This document shows, piece after piece, positions 2,104 through 53,404 of a DNA stretch of 64,000 bases (its first letter is position 1; each line of letters starts with the position of its first letter). The notes below the pieces were generated by a model. The model was not told where the DNA came from. It did no database searches and saw only the letters and a list, made by a program, of their open reading frames with translations. The position numbers were made by a program, and so were the translations under genes. The DNA lies in assembly GCA_012838995.1 (NCBI GenBank), contig DUOD01000003.1:10602-74601 (forward strand), read 5' to 3'. This DNA is from Clostridiales bacterium (GTDB lineage: Bacteria > Bacillota > Clostridia > DUOD01).

Positions 2104-2408
2104 CAGGTCGGTGGCAAAAACGTATTTGACAAGGATAGCTATACAGCCGCCAAATTCATAGGGTACGTGGCAAACCGTTAAGGTGGCAGTAAGATAAGGA
2201 CTAAATATGGGCAAATCCTATAACAGGACATAAACGCACAGCATATAATAAAACTGGGTGGCAAAAACCCAATAAAAAACCTTTACCGAATTATAATTAT
2301 TATAGATAAGTCATTTGTTGCGGGAACGGGCTTAAAGAAGGATTGTGCAGAAGTGTTTGGTGGGTGAGTTGATATAATAAATAGCCATGATACGAGGGGG
2401 ATTTATTG

Positions 2409-3278
2409 ATGGCGCTGGATGGAACGCTTAAAATGAAGGAAGGCATTGAGGGTGCAAGGCAATCGGTTTCATTGATGGCAATGGACGGACCGCTTCGGAC
2501 CGACGGAATTAAATGGCTGGTGGAAGTGCCTTTTGCCCACAGAGGCTTTCATACCGGTGACGGTATAATACCCGAAAATTCAACGGCCGCCTTTAAAAGG
2601 GCCATCGATTACGGTTATGCCATTGAACTGGATGTTCGTTTGTCCTCCGATGGTAAAGTGGTGGTTTTTCACGACAAAAGTTTATACAGAATGACCGGAA
2701 TAAGTAAATTTATTGACGATCTTACCTGGGAGGAAATTAAGCATATAAAGCTTCTTGGGTCAAGGTATACCATTCCTTTGTTGGAGCATGTGCTAAAGCT
2801 GGTTAACGGAAGGGTACCAATGCTGATAGAAGTAAAAAACAATGGCGTACCCGGCCCCCTGGAGCAGGCCCTTATTGATGTGCTCAGAGACTACAAAGGA
2901 CACTTTGCCGTCCAGTCCTTTAACCCCTTATCGCTGAGGTATTTTAAGCAAAATGCACCCCAAATAATAAGGGGACAGTTATCGGGCTCATTCAAAGGCG
3001 AGAACCTGATGTTTTTCAATAAATTTCTTTTAAGGTATCTTCTTTTGAACGGTTTAAGCAAACCCTCCTATGTGGCCTATGAAATAGGCTACTTTCCTAA
3101 ATGGTTGGCAAACCTCCAGCGGAGAATGGGCATTTATCTTTTAGGTTGGACTGCCAAATCCCCTAAGGATCATGAGAGGGCCAAAGGAATATATGATAAC
3201 GTAATCTTCGAAGGGTATATGGCTCAACCCTTTAAAAAGCCATTGTCCGTTGGAAAGGGTCCGGGCATCCTAAGTTGA
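2409..3278 (+). CDS. glycerophosphodiester phosphodiesterase family protein
   Basis: GDPD hallmarks are present: the AHRGF(H) motif, then NSTAAFKRAIDYGYAIELDVRLSSDGKVVVFHD. A GAGGGGGA RBS lies 8 nt upstream of ATG 2409, and the ORF could also begin at TTG 2406. Confidence 0.8.
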   Translation: MALDGTLKMKEGIEGARQSVSLMAMDGPLRTDGIKWLVEVPFAHRGFHTGDGIIPENSTAAFKRAIDYGYAIELDVRLSSDGKVVVFHDKSLYRMTGISKFIDDLTWEEIKHIKLLGSRYTIPLLEHVLKLVNGRVPMLIEVKNNGVPGPLEQALIDVLRDYKGHFAVQSFNPLSLRYFKQNAPQIIRGQLSGSFKGENLMFFNKFLLRYLLLNGLSKPSYVAYEIGYFPKWLANLQRRMGIYLLGWTAKSPKDHERAKGIYDNVIFEGYMAQPFKKPLSVGKGPGILS

Positions 3279-3831: not shown

Positions 3832-3860
3832 ATCATAACATAAAGAACTATACTTTTCAA
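3832..3860 (-). promoter_or_regulatory. sigma-A type promoter for the small DMT gene (-35 TTGAAA, 17-bp spacer, extended -10 TGtTATGAT)
   Basis: Reverse complement of 3832..3860 reads TTGAAAagtatagttctttatgtTATGAT. The hexamers are near-consensus and the spacer is 17 bp. Confidence 0.45.
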
Positions 3861-4059
3861 TTATAAGGCCGGTTTTAAAAAAATTACCGGGACAATTTTT
3901 TATAGCGCAAAAAAGTTAGCAAGTGCAATACTTCATGACTCCCAATTTTTGTCGATATTTATCCTGTTATTTATTTGAATTGGGTGATATGATAGTTGAG
4001 CGGTGAGTTAATTGAGTGATAAGATATAAGTAACAAATACCCGAAAGGAGAATAGATCA

Positions 4060-4533
4060 TTGGCCAGACCTACCAAGTGGAGACGGGTAGAATTTATACC
4101 CAACTTTTCGTATTTCGTACCCTCGGATTTGGCCGGAGGGAAAATACAGGAAAATATCATAAAAATAGAAGAAGCGGAGGCCCTGCGCCTAAAGGATCTT
4201 GAAGGTCTTGAGCAAGAAGACTGTGCCGCAAAGATGGAAATTTCACGACAGACCTTCCAGCGTATATTAAACAGTGCCCGTAGAAAGGTGGCTGACAGTA
4301 TCATTAACGGCAAGGCCATTAGAATAGAAGGGGGTACCTATACAAGAAATATCTGCCCCGTGAAATGCCTAAGTTGCGGTAAGGAATGGAAGGAAAGCTT
4401 CGAAAACTTTGAAAAAATCTTAGAGGGTAATTACAATTGTCCAAACTGCCATTCAAAAAGAATTGTATGTGCCCGAAATGATAAAAAAAGGTTTTGCAGG
4501 CGTAATTGCTGGCGGCACGGCAGAAACTTTTAA
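4060..4533 (+). CDS. DUF134 (UPF0251) putative DNA-binding protein fused to a C-terminal Cys4 zinc-ribbon
   Basis: Start is TTG 4060 with a GAAAGGAG RBS 8 nt upstream. The N-terminal ~95 aa match the DUF134 pattern (MARPTKWRRV...LEALRL.DLEGL.QEE.A.KM.ISRQTF.RIL..ARRKVAD.I.NGKAIRIEGG). The C-terminal 60 aa carry CPVKC...CGKEW...CPNCHSKR. Confidence 0.75.
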   Translation: MARPTKWRRVEFIPNFSYFVPSDLAGGKIQENIIKIEEAEALRLKDLEGLEQEDCAAKMEISRQTFQRILNSARRKVADSIINGKAIRIEGGTYTRNICPVKCLSCGKEWKESFENFEKILEGNYNCPNCHSKRIVCARNDKKRFCRRNCWRHGRNF

Positions 4534-29273: not shown

Positions 29274-30605
29274 GTGGATTTCAAGTTATTAACATTTAAA
29301 GGGGGAATCTATCCACCCCATAACAAATCGGCTACCGAAAAAAAGCCAATAAAGGACGCGAAAGAAGGCAAACAAGTTATTATCCCTATGCAGCAACATG
29401 CAGGGGCACCCTGTAAGCCTTTGGTTTCCAAGGGTGATTATGTAAAAGTAGGTCAAAGGATAGGTGAACCCGATGGATTTGTGAGCGCCCCCGTTCATTC
29501 CAGCGTATCGGGTACTGTGACATCGGTTGGGCCCATGCTCCATCCTGCGGGTCAAAGGGTGATGTCGGTTGTAATTGAGCCCGATGGGTTAAACGCAATT
29601 GATGAGGGCATAGCACCAAAGGGTGACATTGACACCTTAAGTCCGAATGATATTAAATCCATTATCCAAGAATCCGGCATTGTGGGACTGGGCGGCGGGG
29701 TTTTTCCTACCCATGTAAAGTTATCGCCTCCGGAAGGGAAAAAGATAGATGCCATAATATTAAACGGTGCGGAATGCGAGCCTTATCTGACCGCCGATCA
29801 TAGGTTGATGCTGGAACGCCCGGAAGACGTTGTCTACGGACTGCGTGCCATGTTGAGGGCTACAGGCGTGAAAAGGGGATATATCGGCATTGAAAACAAT
29901 AAAAAGGATGCCATTGAAAGAATAAGGAAATGTATAAAGGACTCTCCCAATATAGAGCTTAAAGTATTGAAAACCAAATACCCCCAGGGCGCGGAAAAAC
30001 AGCTTATTTATGCCATTACCAAGCGTGTTGTGCCTTCCGGCGGATTACCCATGGATGTCGGAGTAATTGTAAATAATGTAGGAACGGCAGCGGCAATAGC
30101 CGAAGCTATTAAAACAGGTATGCCGTTAATCCAAAGGATAGTCACTGTCGCCGGTGATGGGGTTAAAGAGCCACAAAATCTAAGGGTAAAATTGGGCACG
30201 ACTTTCAAAGACGTGATTAATCAATGTGGCGGTATGGTAGGAGATGTGGGAAAGATAATCATGGGGGGCCCCATGATGGGAATCGCCCAATACGATTTAA
30301 ACGTTCCCGTCATTAAGTGCACTTCCGGTATATTGGTGTTAAGCAGGCAAAGCGCTTCACTCCCCGAGCAGGGACCATGTATTAGATGCGGCAAATGTAT
30401 AACCGTGTGTCCCGTAAACCTCATGCCGTTATTAATCAGCCAGTATATCCTGGATGATAACTTTGAACAGGCTGAAAAACACCATGCTTTAGACTGTATT
30501 GAATGCGGTTCATGTTCATATATTTGTCCGGCAAAAAGGCCGTTGTTACAGTCCATAAGGGTTGCCAAGGGTGTGATTATGGCCAACAAGAAGAAATGTA
30601 ACTAG
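29274..30605 (+). CDS. rnfC: Rnf electron transport complex subunit C
   Basis: RnfC family with an NADH-binding SLBB-like domain and C-terminal 2x[4Fe-4S] (CIRCGKCITVCP, CIECGSCSYICP). Start is GTG with an AAGTGAGGTG RBS. Confidence 0.9.
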   Translation: MDFKLLTFKGGIYPPHNKSATEKKPIKDAKEGKQVIIPMQQHAGAPCKPLVSKGDYVKVGQRIGEPDGFVSAPVHSSVSGTVTSVGPMLHPAGQRVMSVVIEPDGLNAIDEGIAPKGDIDTLSPNDIKSIIQESGIVGLGGGVFPTHVKLSPPEGKKIDAIILNGAECEPYLTADHRLMLERPEDVVYGLRAMLRATGVKRGYIGIENNKKDAIERIRKCIKDSPNIELKVLKTKYPQGAEKQLIYAITKRVVPSGGLPMDVGVIVNNVGTAAAIAEAIKTGMPLIQRIVTVAGDGVKEPQNLRVKLGTTFKDVINQCGGMVGDVGKIIMGGPMMGIAQYDLNVPVIKCTSGILVLSRQSASLPEQGPCIRCGKCITVCPVNLMPLLISQYILDDNFEQAEKHHALDCIECGSCSYICPAKRPLLQSIRVAKGVIMANKKKCN

Positions 30606-30617
30606 GGGGTCATTGAA

Positions 30618-31550
30618 ATGAATAAACTAATAGTTTCATCATCGCCTCATATTCTTTCCAAAAATTCGATTCAACGAATAATGCTCGATGTCATCATAGC
30701 TCTAATGCCCGCTCTTGTAGCAGCAATTATATTTTTTGGACATAGGGCATTGGTTATTACTATAGTATCGGTGGCAGCTGCCGTTTTGACCGAAGCAGTG
30801 TTACAAAAGCTTTGTAAAAAACCGGTTACCGTCAATGATTTAAGTGCGGTGGTTAGCGGAATATTAATTGCATTTAATTTACCGGTGAGTGTACCCTTAT
30901 GGATGCCCGTAGTGGGTTCGGTTTTTGCCATGGCACTAGTGAAGTTCGTCTTTGGTGGTTTGGGACATAATTTCATGAACCCTGCCTTGGCTGCACGGGC
31001 CTTATTAACAGTATCCTGGCCTGCCAGGATGGCGGGTGCGGTATGGACCCAGCCGGGCAACATAGACGTTATCGGTATTGCAACACCTTTGGAGCTTTTA
31101 AAAGCAGGAGAAAATCTGCCTGGTATATATGATCTTTTCATGGGAAACGTGGCGGGTTGTCTGGGGGAAACCTCTGCCCTTGCTTTATTGATAGGCGGTA
31201 TATACCTTCTTTTAAGGGGTGTTATTAACTGGAGAACGCCGGTTACCTTTATAGGCAGTGTGGCTTTGATTAGCTGGATATTTGGCGTAAATCCATTGTA
31301 TAGCATCCTTGCCGGAGGTTTAATGCTGGGTGCCCTGTTCATGGCTACCGATTATGCCACTGCTCCGGTAACGCCCAAGGGGCAGTTAATAATGGGTGTT
31401 GGATGCGGGGTAATAACTACTTTTATCCGCTTGTTCGGAGGTTACCCCGAAGGGGTAAGTTATTCAATATTGTTTATGAATGTTATGACACCACTGATTG
31501 ATAAATTTACCATGCCTAAAAAATTTGGTGGGGTGAAGACACATGCGTGA
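30618..31550 (+). CDS. rnfD: Rnf complex subunit D (NqrB-like)
   Basis: A polytopic membrane protein of the RnfD/NqrB family, carrying the FMN-attachment region. Confidence 0.9.
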   Translation: MNKLIVSSSPHILSKNSIQRIMLDVIIALMPALVAAIIFFGHRALVITIVSVAAAVLTEAVLQKLCKKPVTVNDLSAVVSGILIAFNLPVSVPLWMPVVGSVFAMALVKFVFGGLGHNFMNPALAARALLTVSWPARMAGAVWTQPGNIDVIGIATPLELLKAGENLPGIYDLFMGNVAGCLGETSALALLIGGIYLLLRGVINWRTPVTFIGSVALISWIFGVNPLYSILAGGLMLGALFMATDYATAPVTPKGQLIMGVGCGVITTFIRLFGGYPEGVSYSILFMNVMTPLIDKFTMPKKFGGVKTHA

Positions 31551-32115
31551 CATATTAAACCTAGGAATTAGATTATTCATAATAACGGTGGTTGCTGTTT
31601 TTTGTCTGGCTATTACCAATGCATATACTAAAGAGCCCATAAGAATAACCGCGGAAAATGCAAATAATGAGGTCAGACGCATGGCATTGCCGCAGGCCCA
31701 AAATTTTGAAGTTGTGGATATACAAGGCAAAAATATCGATGGTTTCAGCAATATTCTTGAAGTATATACCGGCCTTGATCCTCAGGGCCAGGTAATAGGC
31801 TATACCGTAAAGACCATATCCAAGGGTTATGGCGGGGATGTTGAAGTTATTGTCGGAATAAAGAAAGACGGTAAGATATCCAGTGTACAAATAGGAGATC
31901 ATAGCGAAACGCCCGGGTTGGGATCCAAGGCAACCGAACCTGGGTTTATTGATCAGTTTGTAGGCAAATCAGCTTCCGAATCTCTTGCATTGTCCAAGAG
32001 TTCCGCTGCTGCCGACAACGAGATACAGGCTGTTACAGGAGCTACCGTGACATCCCAAGCGGTAATAAACGGTGTTAATACGGCCATCCAGTTTTACAAT
32101 GAAATATTAAAGTAG
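31543..32115 (+). CDS. rnfG: Rnf complex subunit G (FMN-binding)
   Basis: An N-terminal TM helix precedes an FMN_bind domain ending AVTGATVTSQAV. The gene overlaps rnfD by 8 nt. Confidence 0.85.
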   Translation: MRDILNLGIRLFIITVVAVFCLAITNAYTKEPIRITAENANNEVRRMALPQAQNFEVVDIQGKNIDGFSNILEVYTGLDPQGQVIGYTVKTISKGYGGDVEVIVGIKKDGKISSVQIGDHSETPGLGSKATEPGFIDQFVGKSASESLALSKSSAAADNEIQAVTGATVTSQAVINGVNTAIQFYNEILK

Positions 32116-32161
32116 AAATATAAATATTTGGGTTTTACAATGTATTTTGGAGGTGTAATCC

Positions 32162-32755
32162 TTGTTATTACGGACTTTAACCAACGGTATAATAAAAGAA
32201 AACCCGATTTTCAGGTTGGTGTTGGGTATGTGTCCTACCTTGGCTGTTACAACGGCAGCCATTAACGGTCTGGGTATGGGTTTTGCAACGATGTTGGTGC
32301 TCATTGGTTCCAATATTGTTATTTCATTATTAAAGAAATTTATTCCCGATAAGGTGAGGATACCGGCTTACGTAGTGGTAATAGCCTCTTTTACAACCAT
32401 AGTGGGTATGTTTTTAAAGGCCTTTGCCCCAGAACTTGACAAGTCACTGGGACTGTTTATACCATTGATAGTTGTAAATTGTTTAATATTGGCCAGGGCG
32501 GAAGCCTTTGCTTCTCAAAATTCCGTACTCCATTCTATTTTGGACGGCTTGGGTATGGGTCTGGGCTTTACATTGGCTTTAACGATCCTTGGGATTATCA
32601 GGGAGCTAATCGGTGCAGGCAGCATATTCGGTATAAATGTTATGGGTAGCGCCTACGAACCCGCTATTATAATGATTTTACCTCCAGGGGCCTTTTTAAC
32701 CCTCGGTTTGCTACTAGGGCTAATAAATAAGCTGACTGTCAAGTCGAGTTCGTAG
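32162..32755 (+). CDS. rnfE: Rnf complex subunit E
   Basis: RnfE/NqrD family 6-TM protein. Start is TTG with a GGAGGTG RBS 6 nt upstream. Confidence 0.9.
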   Translation: MLLRTLTNGIIKENPIFRLVLGMCPTLAVTTAAINGLGMGFATMLVLIGSNIVISLLKKFIPDKVRIPAYVVVIASFTTIVGMFLKAFAPELDKSLGLFIPLIVVNCLILARAEAFASQNSVLHSILDGLGMGLGFTLALTILGIIRELIGAGSIFGINVMGSAYEPAIIMILPPGAFLTLGLLLGLINKLTVKSSS

Positions 32756-32774
32756 ATGAAAGGGGCTGAGATAA

Positions 32775-33368
32775 ATGGTCGCAACTTCTGTTTCTAAGAT
32801 TTTTATAATATTGCTGAGTTCAATATTGGTCAATAATTTTGTAATGTCGAGATTTTTGGGCATCTGTCCATTTTTAGGCGTATCTAAAAAGGTAGAAACA
32901 GCGGTGGGCATGGGTGCGGCTGTTACCTTTGTAATGGCCTTAGCATCGGTTATAACATACGCGATACAATATGCAATTTTGGAACCTTTGGGGATTGGAT
33001 ATTTGCAAACAATTGCTTTTATACTTGTTATCGCCACCCTGGTACAATTTGTGGAAATGGTCATCCAAAAGAGCAGTCCCTCTTTGTATCAATCACTGGG
33101 CGTGTATCTGCCTTTGATAACCACCAATTGTGCGGTTCTTGGTGTGGCAATATTGAATATACAAGAACAGTATACCTTACTTGAAACGTTGATTAACGGA
33201 ATAGGCGCGGCATTGGGCTTTACGTTGGCAATTGTGTTATTTGCCGGCATAAGGGAAAGGTTGGAAACGGCGCCTATACCCAAATCCCTTAAGGGATTCC
33301 CCATTGCCCTTATTACTGCAGGGCTGATGTCCATTGCCTTTTTAGGATTCCAAGGATTGATAAAGTAA
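32775..33368 (+). CDS. rnfA: Rnf complex subunit A
   Basis: RnfA/NqrE family 6-TM protein, paralogous to rnfE. Confidence 0.9.
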   Translation: MVATSVSKIFIILLSSILVNNFVMSRFLGICPFLGVSKKVETAVGMGAAVTFVMALASVITYAIQYAILEPLGIGYLQTIAFILVIATLVQFVEMVIQKSSPSLYQSLGVYLPLITTNCAVLGVAILNIQEQYTLLETLINGIGAALGFTLAIVLFAGIRERLETAPIPKSLKGFPIALITAGLMSIAFLGFQGLIK

Positions 33369-33382
33369 AGGGGTGAAAAGCT

Positions 33383-34363
33383 ATGCTTGAAAATATATTA
33401 TGGCCGGTGGTCAGCCTGGGGATCATGTCTTTGGTATTCGGTGTAGGTCTGGCCTTGGCATCAAAGAAATTTGCTGTGGAAATAGATCCCAAGGTTGAAG
33501 AAGTAAGGCAAGTGCTGCCGGGGGCCAACTGCGGCGGATGCGGATTTGCCGGTTGCGACAGTTATGCGGAGGCAGTAGTTGCCGGCGAAGCTTCGGCAGC
33601 GGCATGTCCGCCGGGAGGCAGTGATGTGATGGCAAAGATAGCCGATATATTAGGTATACCATTGGATGCCCAAGAAAGAAATGTGGCCTCGGTTATGTGT
33701 GCAGGTCCTTGTACGGAGGAAAACAAAAAATACCAGTACCATGGTATAGCCGGCTGCAGAGCTGTAAGTATGTTATCAGGAGGAAACAAAGGCTGTAGCT
33801 ATGGATGTTTAGGATTGGGTACCTGTAAGAATAACTGTCCCTTTGATGCAATTTCCATATCAGGAGATGGGATAGCGGTGGTGAATGAAGATAAGTGCAC
33901 CGGATGCGGTAGATGTACTGAAGTTTGCCCCAGGGGCATTATACAACTTGTGCCGGCATCCCAAGGCGTAAGGGTACTGTGTTCCAGCAAAGACAGGGGC
34001 AAAACGGTGAAGGAATATTGTAAGGTAGGATGTATTGGCTGTCAAATATGCGTCAGAGCATGTAAGTTCGATGCCATAACATTTGAAGACAATCTCCCTA
34101 AAATCGACTATGATAAGTGCACGGGTTGCATGGTATGTGTTGAAAAATGCCCGACAAAGTCGATACATGGGGATTTATCCAAGAGGAAGACCGCTTCCAT
34201 CGACCAGGATGGGTGTATTGGATGTACCGTCTGTATAAAGGCATGTAAGTTTGATGCCATAGAAGGAGAAAGGAAGCAAAAACATAAGGTGTTGGAGGAT
34301 AAATGCGTAGGATGCGGACTGTGCGCAGTTAAATGTCCAAAGGATGCAATTACAATTCAATAG
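33383..34363 (+). CDS. rnfB: Rnf complex subunit B (polyferredoxin)
   Basis: An N-terminal TM helix is followed by multiple [4Fe-4S] CxxCxxCxxxCP motifs. Confidence 0.9.
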   Translation: MLENILWPVVSLGIMSLVFGVGLALASKKFAVEIDPKVEEVRQVLPGANCGGCGFAGCDSYAEAVVAGEASAAACPPGGSDVMAKIADILGIPLDAQERNVASVMCAGPCTEENKKYQYHGIAGCRAVSMLSGGNKGCSYGCLGLGTCKNNCPFDAISISGDGIAVVNEDKCTGCGRCTEVCPRGIIQLVPASQGVRVLCSSKDRGKTVKEYCKVGCIGCQICVRACKFDAITFEDNLPKIDYDKCTGCMVCVEKCPTKSIHGDLSKRKTASIDQDGCIGCTVCIKACKFDAIEGERKQKHKVLEDKCVGCGLCAVKCPKDAITIQ

Positions 34364-34531: not shown

Positions 34532-34699
34532 ATGTTTTATTTAATAAATAGCCTTTTACCCGATGACATAAAAAGACTGGGAAGGAAATTTATTGTATCT
34601 AAGTACAAATATGGCATAGACTCACCAAAGACCATAAGCATACTCCTTAAATTAGAAAAAAAGAAAAAAGAACAGGCCACGGCGGGTACAATAGCCTAA
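34532..34699 (+). CDS. hypothetical small basic protein (55 aa; not in supplied ORF track: below length cutoff)
   Basis: Product is MFYLINSLLPDDIKRLGRKFIVSKYKYGIDSPKTISILLKLEKKKKEQATAGTIA. A GGGGTG RBS lies 7 nt upstream, and an extended -10 (TGgTATATAAT) lies ~65 nt upstream. No homology is recognised. Confidence 0.25.
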   Translation: MFYLINSLLPDDIKRLGRKFIVSKYKYGIDSPKTISILLKLEKKKKEQATAGTIA

Positions 34700-34714: not shown

Positions 34715-35941
34715 TTATTGTTTAAAAACCATGCTATTTAGTTGGCCGGTATAGAATTTTTCAAGGACGATGGCTGCAGCACCCACAACCGGGGATTCCC
34801 TTGCAAATTTTGATATCCTTATGTCCATCTTTCTAAAGTTTTCGGCAAACATCCGTTGACTTACTTTTGCCTTTAGCCTGTCTACCAGAAGACTGCCGGC
34901 TATAGATAGTTCATTTCCTAAAAATACAGCCTGAGGGTCGAAGGTGTTAAGAATGTTGGTGAGGCCGGTGGACAGATAAAAGGATATTTTGTCTATAATG
35001 TTTAACGCCAATCCATCGCCTTGCAAAGCGCCTTTTATAATCATGGGCCACGTTACCCGGTTAATATCGGGACATATATTCCTTAATATGCTTTTGGTCT
35101 CTGCCAAGAGGGCTGTTTTAACCTGTTCAATTATCCTAGGTATGCTGACATACAGTTCAAGACAGCCGTAGTTTCCACAGGGGCACTTCTCTCCCGACAG
35201 GTCCACTGTGGTATGACCGATCTCTCCCGCAAAGCCACTTTGTCTCCTATATAATTGTCCGTTTATAATTATTCCGGCTCCCAAGCCATTGGTTACCCCT
35301 AAATAAACAAAGTTTTCTATCCTCTTGCCGTAACCTCAAAACCTTTCGGCCAGGGCACACCCGTTCATGTCATTGTCTATGAATATGGGACAAGCAAACT
35401 GTTCTTTTAAAATGGATACTATGGGTATACCCTTCCAGTTCCTAAAATTCGGAGGTTCCAGAATAACCCCTTTCTTTACGTCGATGGGTCCGATGGAACC
35501 TATACCTATACCTAATATGTTATCCGAATTAATACTTATCAAATCCTTTGTAAGTTTGATTATTCTTGACAGTACGCTATCAATGCTGTCTCCCAATTTA
35601 AATTCAAAATGCCGCCTTGCCCTAATGTTACCGAAAAGATCGGTCCTTGCGATAATAGAATAATCCCTTGAGATGTATATTCCGATAATATTATAGGCAT
35701 CCCTATTAATGGATATTAAAACCGGTTTTCTCCCTACCGAAGTATTGGGTTGATGGCCATGCTCCACTACGAGATTATGGGATAATAATTTATTTATTAT
35801 GTTTGTTATGGTGGTTTTTGTCAATCCTGTCAACCGGGATAATTGGATGCGTGATATACGGCCTTCCATATTAATAAGCCTTAAGATCAGGCTTACATTA
35901 TCCCTTTTGTTTGCATTGTAAACATTATTGTCAAAATTCAT
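34715..35941 (-). pseudogene. ROK-family transcriptional regulator (HTH + sugar-kinase fold) interrupted by an in-frame TGA
   Basis: The N-terminal part (MNFDNN...LSRLTGLTKTTITNIINKLL) ends ...NGCALAERF* at a TGA at 35336..35338. The same frame continues GYGKRIENFVYLGVTNGLGAGIIINGQ...AGEIGH..CPCGNYGCLE, which is the C-terminal half of a ROK protein. The stop sits where ROK proteins carry a conserved Trp (E.WFG.G). Confidence 0.7.
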
Positions 35942-36099
35942 AATGCTACACAACCTTGATAAAGTAAATTTACTATTATATAAAATATTAAGTCTTAATA
36001 AGAAAGATGTCGAATAACCAATTGCCAATACCGGTGTTTTATATATTGTTCTGTACATGTTACTGTGGTATCATTAAATTAGTAAATTAATTTTACAAA

Positions 36100-37056
36100 A
36101 TGCGGGGGGGATGGGTTGTGTGCCATATTGTGTGCTTAGGGGTTTTATGTGCAGATGTAATAGTAAAGCCGGTTGACAAGTTCCCCGACAAGGGAAAGCT
36201 AAACTTGGTTGATAAGCTGGAATTACACACCGGGGGTTGTGCCACCAATGCAGCCATAGACCTTGCAAAGCTTGGCATAAAGCCCGCCATAATAGGCAAG
36301 GTTGGAGATGACGGATTCGGTAATTTTTTGCGCAGCACACTGGAAAAAGAAGGAGTGGATGTTGGGGGTCTAAAACTTTCTAAAAACGATAGCACCTCGG
36401 CGTCTGTTGTGTTATCAGGCAGTGACGGAGAGCGGACCTTTCTCCATTGTCTGGGTTCAAACGCCCAATTTCAGGAGACTGACATCGACTTTTCTATTAT
36501 AAAAAATACCAAGATATTATTCGTTGCCGGTTCCCTTTTAATGCCGAAGTTCGATGGTCAGCAGACAGCAAACACTTTAAGAAAAGCCCAGGAGATGGGT
36601 GTATATACCGCTCTGGATACCGCTTGGGATTCAACCGGCAGATGGATGAGGGCTATAAAACCCTGCTTGCCCTATCTTGATTTGTTTATGCCCAGCATTG
36701 AAGAGGCAGAAATGATAAGCGGAAAAAGCGATGTCAACGACATGGCGGATGTATTTATTGACCTGGGTGCCAAATTAGTGGTTATAAAAATGGGTGAAAA
36801 GGGCTGTTTTATTAAAAAACCTGATGGCACTGCTTATACAATACCTGCCTATCTGGATGTTGAGGCCGTTGACACTACCGGCGCCGGGGATGCCTTTGCT
36901 GCGGGGTTTATAACGGGTATTCTTAAAGGTTGGGACTTGGAAAGGTGCGGTAAATTCGCCAACGCTGTGGGTGCCCATTGTGTAATGGCTGTGGGTGCAT
37001 CCAGCGGCATAAAATCTTTAGACGAGATTATGGCTTTTATTAAGGAAAGGGAATGA
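36100..37056 (+). CDS. PfkB-family carbohydrate kinase (fructokinase/ribokinase-like)
   Basis: Contains GGCATNAAIDLAKLG and the anion-hole/ATP motif DTTGAGDAFAAGF. The gene is divergent from the ROK gene. The start may be GTG 36118, which follows a G-rich RBS. Confidence 0.8.
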   Translation: MRGGWVVCHIVCLGVLCADVIVKPVDKFPDKGKLNLVDKLELHTGGCATNAAIDLAKLGIKPAIIGKVGDDGFGNFLRSTLEKEGVDVGGLKLSKNDSTSASVVLSGSDGERTFLHCLGSNAQFQETDIDFSIIKNTKILFVAGSLLMPKFDGQQTANTLRKAQEMGVYTALDTAWDSTGRWMRAIKPCLPYLDLFMPSIEEAEMISGKSDVNDMADVFIDLGAKLVVIKMGEKGCFIKKPDGTAYTIPAYLDVEAVDTTGAGDAFAAGFITGILKGWDLERCGKFANAVGAHCVMAVGASSGIKSLDEIMAFIKERE

Positions 37057-37241
37057 CGGGAAGTATTGGTTATGTCCATAAAAAAAAATTTTCATTCTAA
37101 TCTGAAACTCTAAGACCCTATACCCTGCATCGGTTCCAAGCCGGGAAGGAGGACTTGGGTTGTACCGCCTGTAGGCAGTATTTACTTTTTTCAATGAAAA
37201 AGTACACCTGAAAAACGGGTGCGGCATAATTTAACATTCTC

Positions 37242-37282
37242 GGTCGGAAAAACATATCTTTTTTTCGGCCTTTTTTATTTTT
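37242..37282 (+). terminator. terminator-like hairpin + T-tract inside the long PfkB-DUF4321 spacer (possible 3' end of an unannotated small RNA or long 3'UTR)
   Basis: Sequence GGTCGGAAAAA-acatatctt-TTTTTCGGCC (10 bp including two G.U pairs) followed by TTTTTTATTTTT. It lies 185 nt after the PfkB stop. Confidence 0.4.
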
Positions 37283-37793: not shown

Positions 37794-38399
37794 ATGAGAC
37801 TGGTTTTAGCATCTGCATCACCCAGAAGGAAGGAATTGTTGAGCATCTTGGGCGTTGAGTTCCAAGTGTTTGAATGTGATGTTGACGAGAACATTGATAT
37901 ACAATGTCCCCATGATTATGTTATGGAGTTGGCCATGCTGAAAGCCCGGACAGCTGCCAGCAAACTGCCTGAGGATGTACTCGTTATAGCAGCCGATACC
38001 ATAGTGTACAAAAACGGAATTCTAGGTAAGCCCGTGGATAGGGAGGATGCTTTTAACATGATAAAGTTTTTGCAGGGCAGCTACCATGAAGTATATACAG
38101 GAATAGCGTTATATTCCTCGGGCGGGAATATTTATAAAAAGGGATATGAAAGAACTGTTGTAAAAATGAAAGAAATGAGCCATGATGAGATAGAATGGTA
38201 TTTAAATCGCAATGAATATAAGGATAAGGCCGGTGCATACGGGATACAAGGTACCGCTTCCATATTTATTGAATATATTCAAGGATGCTACTTTAACGTG
38301 GTTGGACTACCGGTGTCCAAGTTGTATAGCATGCTTAAAGAGATAAATGCAGTTAATAGGCTTAAGATTGGACTGGGTGGTTTAAAAGATGACGGCTAG
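37794..38399 (+). CDS. maf: Maf-like nucleoside triphosphate pyrophosphatase / septum formation protein
   Basis: Begins MRLVLASASPRRKELL, then GIALY and AYGIQG motifs. Confidence 0.9.
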   Translation: MRLVLASASPRRKELLSILGVEFQVFECDVDENIDIQCPHDYVMELAMLKARTAASKLPEDVLVIAADTIVYKNGILGKPVDREDAFNMIKFLQGSYHEVYTGIALYSSGGNIYKKGYERTVVKMKEMSHDEIEWYLNRNEYKDKAGAYGIQGTASIFIEYIQGCYFNVVGLPVSKLYSMLKEINAVNRLKIGLGGLKDDG

Positions 38400-53315: not shown

Positions 53316-53404
53316 ATTTCAATGTGAAGCCGCTCAGGAAAGGTTATAAAAATCCTTGGGATTACCTTGTTCTGGCGAGACTGGTTTGAGGAGGTGTAAA
53401 CGGC

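Follow-up and report, generated by a model that had tools for sequence, protein, structure and literature searches.

A probable recent loss-of-function allele of a ROK-family regulator in an apparently eroding sugar locus of an uncultured clostridial species

ROK-family transcriptional regulators include NagC and Mlc of E. coli and XylR of the Firmicutes, and a gene of this family, interrupted by an in-frame TGA and lying divergent from a PfkB-family sugar kinase gene, is the subject of this report. It is carried on 64,000 nucleotides of contig DUOD01000003.1 from a Clostridiales bacterium (assembly GCA_012838995.1), the whole of which is referred to below as the window. We read the gene, with a probability of roughly three in four, as a ROK repressor gene that has lost its function recently and throughout the species, within a sugar locus undergoing dismantling, the kinase presumably being expressed constitutively. 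On that reading the event is a further instance of a well-known kind, ordinary recent gene inactivation.

With NagC and Mlc (structures 1z6r and 1z05) the protein, when its stop is bridged, shares a winged helix-turn-helix (HTH), the ROK sugar-binding fold and the zinc motif GH...CxCGxxGCxE, and over residues 12-401 it aligns with the models for both proteins and with the two structures. AT-rich palindromic operators are a further common trait, and the divergent nagE-nagB intergenic region contains two operators, as does that of the window locus if both candidate sites described below are counted. The targets differ, being a PfkB kinase/isomerase operon here instead of nag or pts genes, and the window gene, unlike its E. 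coli counterparts, is interrupted. The ancestral form of the locus more closely recalls XylR, which is encoded divergently from xylAB: in each case a ROK repressor faces an operon whose genes encode an isomerase and a kinase for a sugar, with the operator lying over the start of the operon transcript. The XylR structure 4ija is matched by the ROK protein with an E-value of 1.2e-27. However, the enzymes are of other families, a cupin-type isomerase (PF07385) and PfkB as against the TIM-barrel XylA and FGGY XylB, and in the window the isomerase gene is deleted and the regulator truncated.

Inactivation of such regulators has been observed in the laboratory. In Clostridium (Acetivibrio) thermocellum, growth on hexoses selects for nonsense or frameshift mutations in one ROK gene, and its deletion switches on fructokinase (PMC8091016). 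The product of that gene, Clo1313_1831, is likewise an HTH-ROK regulator from a clostridium, and its gene readily acquires premature stops and frameshifts, the likeness being one of proposed consequence and not of established orthology; its alleles came from laboratory selection, whereas the window allele is natural and fixed and may be regarded as a natural counterpart to those selected for hexose use. A second point of comparison is provided by maintained in-frame stops (Belinky et al. 2021, PMC7918605), in which, as here, one nonsense codon lies in a well-preserved gene with a ratio of non-synonymous to synonymous substitution rates (dN/dS) well below 1. In the window, however, that ratio is uninformative because synonymous sites are saturated, and the surrounding locus is independently eroding.

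A single regulator gene with an internal stop

Translation of the minus strand across 34715..35941 gives a single frame of 408 codons with one internal stop, preceded directly by the residues NDMNGCALAERF and followed directly by GYGKRIENFVYLGV. The mechanically called minus-strand open reading frames (ORFs) at 34715..35284 and 35336..36058 are the two halves of this one ROK gene, as an earlier note on the sequence, which recognized the HTH and the zinc motif, had proposed. Pfam ROK (PF00480) matches residues 86-394 of the bridged protein at profile positions 2-293 of 294 (E 1.3e-57) and spans both halves. The N-terminal winged HTH that distinguishes regulators from ROK kinases is present, with MarR_2 (21.8 bits) and HTH_24 (20.5 bits) scoring slightly below the Pfam cut-offs at residues 18-60. 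Beyond the stop the zinc motif reads H243...C253-P-C255-G-N-Y-G-C260-L-E and is complete to E262; H243, C253, C255, G256, N257, G259 and C260 are invariant in a 17-sequence alignment of homologues. Gene calls in ten other assemblies, together with the orthologue alignment, place the true start at ATG 35941 instead of 36058. The protein falls far below the NCBIfam equivalog cut-offs for NagC (NF047937, 215.3 against 650 bits) and Mlc (NF049930, 206.7 against 530 bits) and is therefore no orthologue of either. Each half has its own GenBank protein record, HHU62649.1 and HHU62648.1, both named 'ROK family'; these records belong to one disrupted gene and should be merged.

The stop occupies codon 202. 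In that column 119 full-length homologues have F (82), Y (30), N (5), L (1) or H (1) and never W. The conserved Trp column (W in 52, L in 36, Y in 20) corresponds to the residue ahead of it, Phe201 in the window, and the earlier placing of the stop exactly at this Trp was off by one residue. The accompanying proposal of a single G-to-A change from TGG finds no support either: comparison with orthologous loci, which the same note had recommended, revealed intact regulators in the two nearest, L001 and L003, and both have TTG (Leu) at codon 202. The TGA is therefore two steps away from the sister codon, via TTA or TGG.

The same lesion recurs well outside this assembly. Independent metagenome projects (ENA, JGI, Logan, NCBI) have yielded at least 10 contigs with the exact 201-residue N-terminal product, several of them labelled biogas fermenter; across the locus their identity to the window is 97.6-99.9%, and all have the TGA. 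Single-base lesions in metagenome-derived sequence carry a generic prior of being sequencing or assembly artefacts, with a sense codon in the real genome, and this is all that favours such an explanation here. We consider it highly improbable, since the stop is repeated in at least 10 contigs from different projects and assemblers (metaSPAdes, MEGAHIT, Logan, JGI) and is a base change, not an indel in a homopolymer run. An exact look-up of eight repaired full-length alleles, with W, L, C, R, G, S, F or Y at residue 202, returned none among ~15 billion proteins, a search that misses intact alleles differing at any other residue. The earlier pseudogene call is strengthened by the presence of the stop in at least 10 assemblies with no intact allele on record, and by the loss of the isomerase gene described below.

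UGA is an ordinary stop in the window organism. The earlier note had observed this at the end of the GDPD gene, and UGA in fact terminates five other long ORFs in the window (GDPD gene, 2406..3278; RnfD; DUF2344; an HD-domain gene; PfkB), the RnfD Pfam profile being complete to its last position before the UGA. There is no second in-frame UGA among the 50 long ORFs of the window. A UGA-reassigned genetic code (4 or 25) was dropped because UGA ends genes at homologous C-termini and lies inside none of the other long ORFs. Selenocysteine was likewise dropped: none of the 119 homologues has Cys in the stop column, and a 76-nt stretch that encloses and follows the UGA is no better folded than its shuffled versions (z = -0.58), giving no fold like a selenocysteine insertion sequence (SECIS). 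The small stem that this stretch does form has no counterpart in the orthologue. No tRNA gene, and hence no tRNA-Sec, occurs in the 64-kb window, the only part of the genome viewed. Both halves are intact and in the same frame, as would be expected if the gene were recoded or expressed as a regulator made of two separate polypeptides. Past the stop, however, the first canonical start in frame is TTG 35284, 17 codons on, and its use would remove a conserved strand before the LGAG segment, so that a functional split protein is unlikely. Together with the ordinary use of UGA, the missing Cys and the lack of a SECIS-like hairpin, this leaves recoding or splitting with very little credibility.

The orthologous loci and the ancestral regulon

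The nearest intact orthologues, P0001/L001 (GCA_040364295.1) and L003 (a Mahellales metagenome-assembled genome), are 78% identical to the window protein and lie in the same place, between the rnf operon and pfkB. The order rnf - small ORF - ROK - pfkB - DUF4321 - maf - mreBCD is kept in these sister genomes. Scans of genome and metagenome contigs yielded no intact relative closer than 78% identity; contig L023 (81% identity) was rejected as one, as its gene begins at residue 214 and the stop site is not covered. More distant orthologues (P0002/L064, P0010/L061, P0024/L063 and L065; 40-46% identity) are all divergent from an operon encoding PfkB and an isomerase, the latter a 181-residue D-lyxose/mannose isomerase of family PF07385, with mannitol dehydrogenase, a GH38 alpha-mannosidase or fructose-bisphosphate aldolase added in some loci. 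Mannose, fructose or lyxose as the sugar are guesses from the isomerase family. L065 (P0107) was also considered as a second case of a split ROK gene. Its ROK, PfkB, DUF4432 and GxGYxYP genes are all split, and it is probably a frameshift-rich long-read assembly, so that the candidate was discarded; it does carry the orthologous ROK/PfkB/isomerase/mannitol-dehydrogenase locus.

The divergent gene in the window belongs to the PfkB family, as previously stated and as its Pfam match (Table 1) bears out. The narrower label of a fructokinase/ribokinase-like enzyme is less secure, the substrate type being a guess: all NCBIfam equivalog scores lie below their cut-offs, the best being IolC-N at 176 against 300 bits, with ribokinase at 147 against 300. 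Translation most likely begins at GTG 36118, which follows a G-rich Shine-Dalgarno sequence, and not at ATG 36100; elsewhere the gene is called with the length that the former start gives. The kinase is 60% identical to the L064 PfkB encoded beside orthologue P0002 and 86.6% identical to the L003 PfkB (tblastn). It is intact and conserved, with a dN/dS of 0.08 against L003.

ROK regulators bind palindromes of roughly 21-bp size (PMC3553997). A search of the spacer for such an operator, suggested earlier, located a site of this length (O1, TTAGTAAATTAATTTTACAAA) at the start of the kinase operon. The palindrome TTAGTAAA-N5-TTTACTAA stands beside the operon start with 0-1 mismatch in the window, L001, L003, L061/62, L063, L064 and L065, and, with up to 2 mismatches allowed, neither the rest of these loci and of the window nor 19 unrelated ROK loci yielded a further copy. 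The classic repressor-target arrangement that had been recognized from gene orientation is thus upheld by synteny and by a conserved palindromic operator in every orthologous locus. A TATCAT/TATTAT box ahead of the operator is also present in L064 and L061. The weaker site, O2, is 123 bp from O1 and downstream of the candidate ROK -10 box; L001 and L061 each have a corresponding second site, at a distance of 124 bp. The short palindrome AGTAAATTTACT that it contains is by itself no more frequent in the window than chance predicts (6 copies where 6.5 are expected, with up to 2 mismatches allowed), and only the 21-bp form with the N5 spacing is specific.

This operator geometry implies, as an inference from sequence, both repression of the operon and autoregulation by the ROK protein. 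Binding of the ancestral regulator to the palindrome just past the operon -10 box would repress, and not activate, the PfkB and isomerase genes, while the second site ~124 bp away in the regulator's own leader would allow it to regulate its own expression. A PfkB kinase and D-lyxose/mannose isomerase operon with a 21-bp operator would constitute a newly described ROK regulon, transferable to the intact relatives. In the uncultured Mahellales-like species sampled here, from biogas and anaerobic-digester material, codon 202 is now TGA. Translation is expected to end after 201 residues, leaving a product that has the HTH and half of the sugar-binding domain but lacks both the zinc motif and the C-terminal half; such a fragment is presumably inactive as a repressor. 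The kinase gene retains its promoter and operator but would meet no full-length repressor, and is thus probably expressed constitutively; derepression is what the C. thermocellum ROK regulator leads one to expect by analogy.

Erosion of the locus in the window lineage

The regulator is not the only part of the locus to have been damaged. In L003 the isomerase gene follows pfkB intact (3856-4401, minus strand; 181 aa, PF07385 match). Relative to it, ~375 nt of the gene are deleted in the window lineage, where a degenerate 3' remnant precedes the terminator-like hairpin (Table 1), and the same short spacer follows pfkB in all assemblies of the lineage. At the ...YRG... position of the ROK signature the regulator also has Arg in place of the conserved Gly (G233R). 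The candidate -35 box of the ROK promoter has a derived change in the window haplotype, from TTGACA to TCGACA. This reflects a C/T polymorphism (minus strand) at 36012, TTGACA being found in most other assemblies and in both sister species; a second C/T polymorphism (minus strand) lies at 36024. The population is near-clonal, the only variants within the gene being a +1 frameshift (L054) and E251V (L055), both 3' of the stop. Deletion of most of the isomerase gene and truncation of the regulator in the same lineage indicate, at the level of sequence, that the locus is eroding as a whole.

Table 1. Features of the ROK/pfkB locus, in window coordinates (a dot marks features to which no strand is assigned).
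Feature	Position	Strand	Remarks
ROK-family (NagC/Mlc-like) transcriptional regulator gene	34715..35941	-	408 codons, interrupted at codon 202; likely recent pseudogene
ROK zinc motif GH-x9-CxCGxxGCxE, H243..E262	35156..35215	-	3' of the stop
Codon 233, AGA (Arg233)	35243..35245	-	Gly in at least 90% of 119 homologues, in both sister genomes and in lineage B; derived change
Tract identical in lineage B contigs	35270..36198	.	~0.93 kb, flanks 8-10% diverged; homologous-recombination patch
In-frame TGA, codon 202	35336..35338	-	Column of F/Y/L in homologues; orthologue codon TTG; TGA in L052-L060
Winged HTH DNA-binding region, residues ~12-70	35732..35908	-	MarR_2/HTH_24 below cut-off; alignment to Mlc/NagC-type N-termini from residue 12
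Operator-like site O2, weaker	35956..35976	.	3 mismatches; contains the perfect palindrome AGTAAATTTACT (35963..35974); in the leader before ATG 35941
Candidate ROK promoter	35985..36013	-	-35 TCGACA (36013..36008), 17 nt, -10 TAATAT (35990..35985); from a scan
Candidate pfkB promoter	36046..36074	+	-35 TTGTTC (36046..36051), 17 nt, extended TG (36066..36067), -10 TATCAT (36069..36074); read from sequence
Putative operator O1, TTAGTAAATTAATTTTACAAA	36079..36099	.	One mismatch to TTAGTAAA-N5-TTTACTAA; begins 5 nt past the pfkB -10 box
PfkB-family sugar kinase gene	36118..37056	+	Intact, 312 aa; ORF opens at 36100; Pfam PfkB (PF00294) E 1.9e-61
Degenerate 3' remnant of D-lyxose/mannose isomerase gene (PF07385)	~37100..37215	+	tblastn, blastn and alignment to L003
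Intrinsic terminator-like hairpin	37242..37270	+	Closes the pfkB(-isomerase) unit; conserved in L003

Recombination, selection and neighbouring features

The stop is also found in a second, diverged lineage, here called lineage B, which is represented by two short contigs, L058 and L060, from different samples and assemblers. Over the tract listed in Table 1, which takes in the 5' end of pfkB, both operators, both promoters and the N-terminal half of the ROK gene with its TGA, lineage B is identical to the common haplotype of the window lineage. On either side it is diverged: the pfkB genes differ at 39 positions (29 synonymous against 8 non-synonymous codons), and codons 225-288 of the ROK gene show 16 synonymous against 5 non-synonymous differences. 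By this sequence pattern, homologous recombination is what moved the stop between the two lineages. The patch could reflect hitch-hiking or selection for a null allele, or it could hint that the allele is not null. In any of these cases an identical stop tract in a diverged lineage offers a small, testable example of recombination carrying an allele, whether null or leaky, from lineage to lineage within an engineered ecosystem.

Several observations weigh against simple loss of function. Measured against L001 and L003, the ROK gene has a dN/dS of 0.12-0.14 overall and 0.10-0.12 in the half after the stop, compared with 0.17 between the intact orthologues. A single conserved column deviates (that of G233R), which is within the normal range of the 119 homologues, and a neutral defect would not be expected to cross into a second lineage, as the stop tract has done, except by hitch-hiking or through an advantage of the null. 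A gene that is healthy apart from its stop fits equally a very recent lesion and a gene still under selection, for example one expressed through low-level read-through of UGA. In that event a near-cognate tRNA, most plausibly that for Trp, would read the UGA at low frequency, and a functional regulator would be throttled and not knocked out. The absence of a decay signal after the stop, the preservation of the zinc motif and of all conserved columns but one, and the occurrence of the stop allele as the sole one seen, in the second lineage as well, are all in keeping with such a leaky stop; the column tolerates F, Y, L and H, so that Trp would probably be accepted, and many bacterial in-frame stops have been argued to be under purifying selection (PMC7918605).

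Against read-through, synonymous divergence (dS) from the nearest intact orthologue is ~1, so that the dN/dS test is uninformative on a recent lesion and shows only that the lesion arose recently on the scale of that divergence. The population variants past the stop are a frameshift and a non-synonymous change, a near-invariant Gly has been replaced, and the deletion of the partner isomerase shows the locus to be under relaxed selection. The UGA has no read-through-promoting structure near it and terminates normally elsewhere in the window. Polarisation of the changes within codons 225-288 assigned 4 non-synonymous and 6 synonymous derived changes to the window lineage and 1 and 7, respectively, to lineage B. 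These counts hint at relaxation in the window lineage but are too small to tell the two lineages apart. We regard a leaky stop as unlikely on this evidence, and prefer recent loss of function.

A genuine loss of function might itself have been favoured. If the knock-out is real, it could have been selected because a constitutive kinase pays in digesters, a refinement of the preferred reading that we hold to be possible although doubtful, and whose likelihood, being conditional on the knock-out, is not to be added to those of the other explanations. The stop is the only allele across at least 10 assemblies, the ~0.93-kb tract shared with L058 and L060 carries the promoter/operator region along with the TGA between flanks 8-10% diverged, and in C. 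thermocellum evolved in the laboratory on fructose or glucose, ROK nonsense or frameshift alleles that activate fructokinase were selected repeatedly. However, in a near-clonal population fixation could equally be due to drift or hitch-hiking, and the recombination event, seen in the two short contigs of lineage B, may have run in either direction and need not have been driven by selection. A more elaborate possibility, which we think quite improbable, combines these ideas: a maintained leaky UGA, probably read as Trp, would throttle a functional ROK regulator, and the promoter-plus-N-terminal cassette would have passed by homologous recombination between the two lineages, 8-10% apart, owing to a benefit of the throttled or null state in anaerobic digesters.

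Directly upstream of the ROK locus lies a complete rnfCDGEAB operon (29274-34363, plus strand). Between rnfB and the ROK gene is a 55-aa ORF (34532-34699, plus strand) that matches no Pfam family and is called as a gene of 51-54 aa in other assemblies and in the sister L001 (2150-2314). A T-rich run downstream of the ROK gene (34657-34672) has a 7-nt length polymorphism, the window being 7 nt longer than most assemblies. On the other side of the locus, contig L051 shows eight differences within 80 nt of maf (window 37967-38046) and is otherwise ~99.9% identical, probably owing to a small recombination patch. An Rfam scan gave no match in the ROK/pfkB locus. The sole match in the window is the ribosomal protein L21 leader (RF00559) at 53318-53392 on the plus strand, which at 40.9 bits is above its gathering score.

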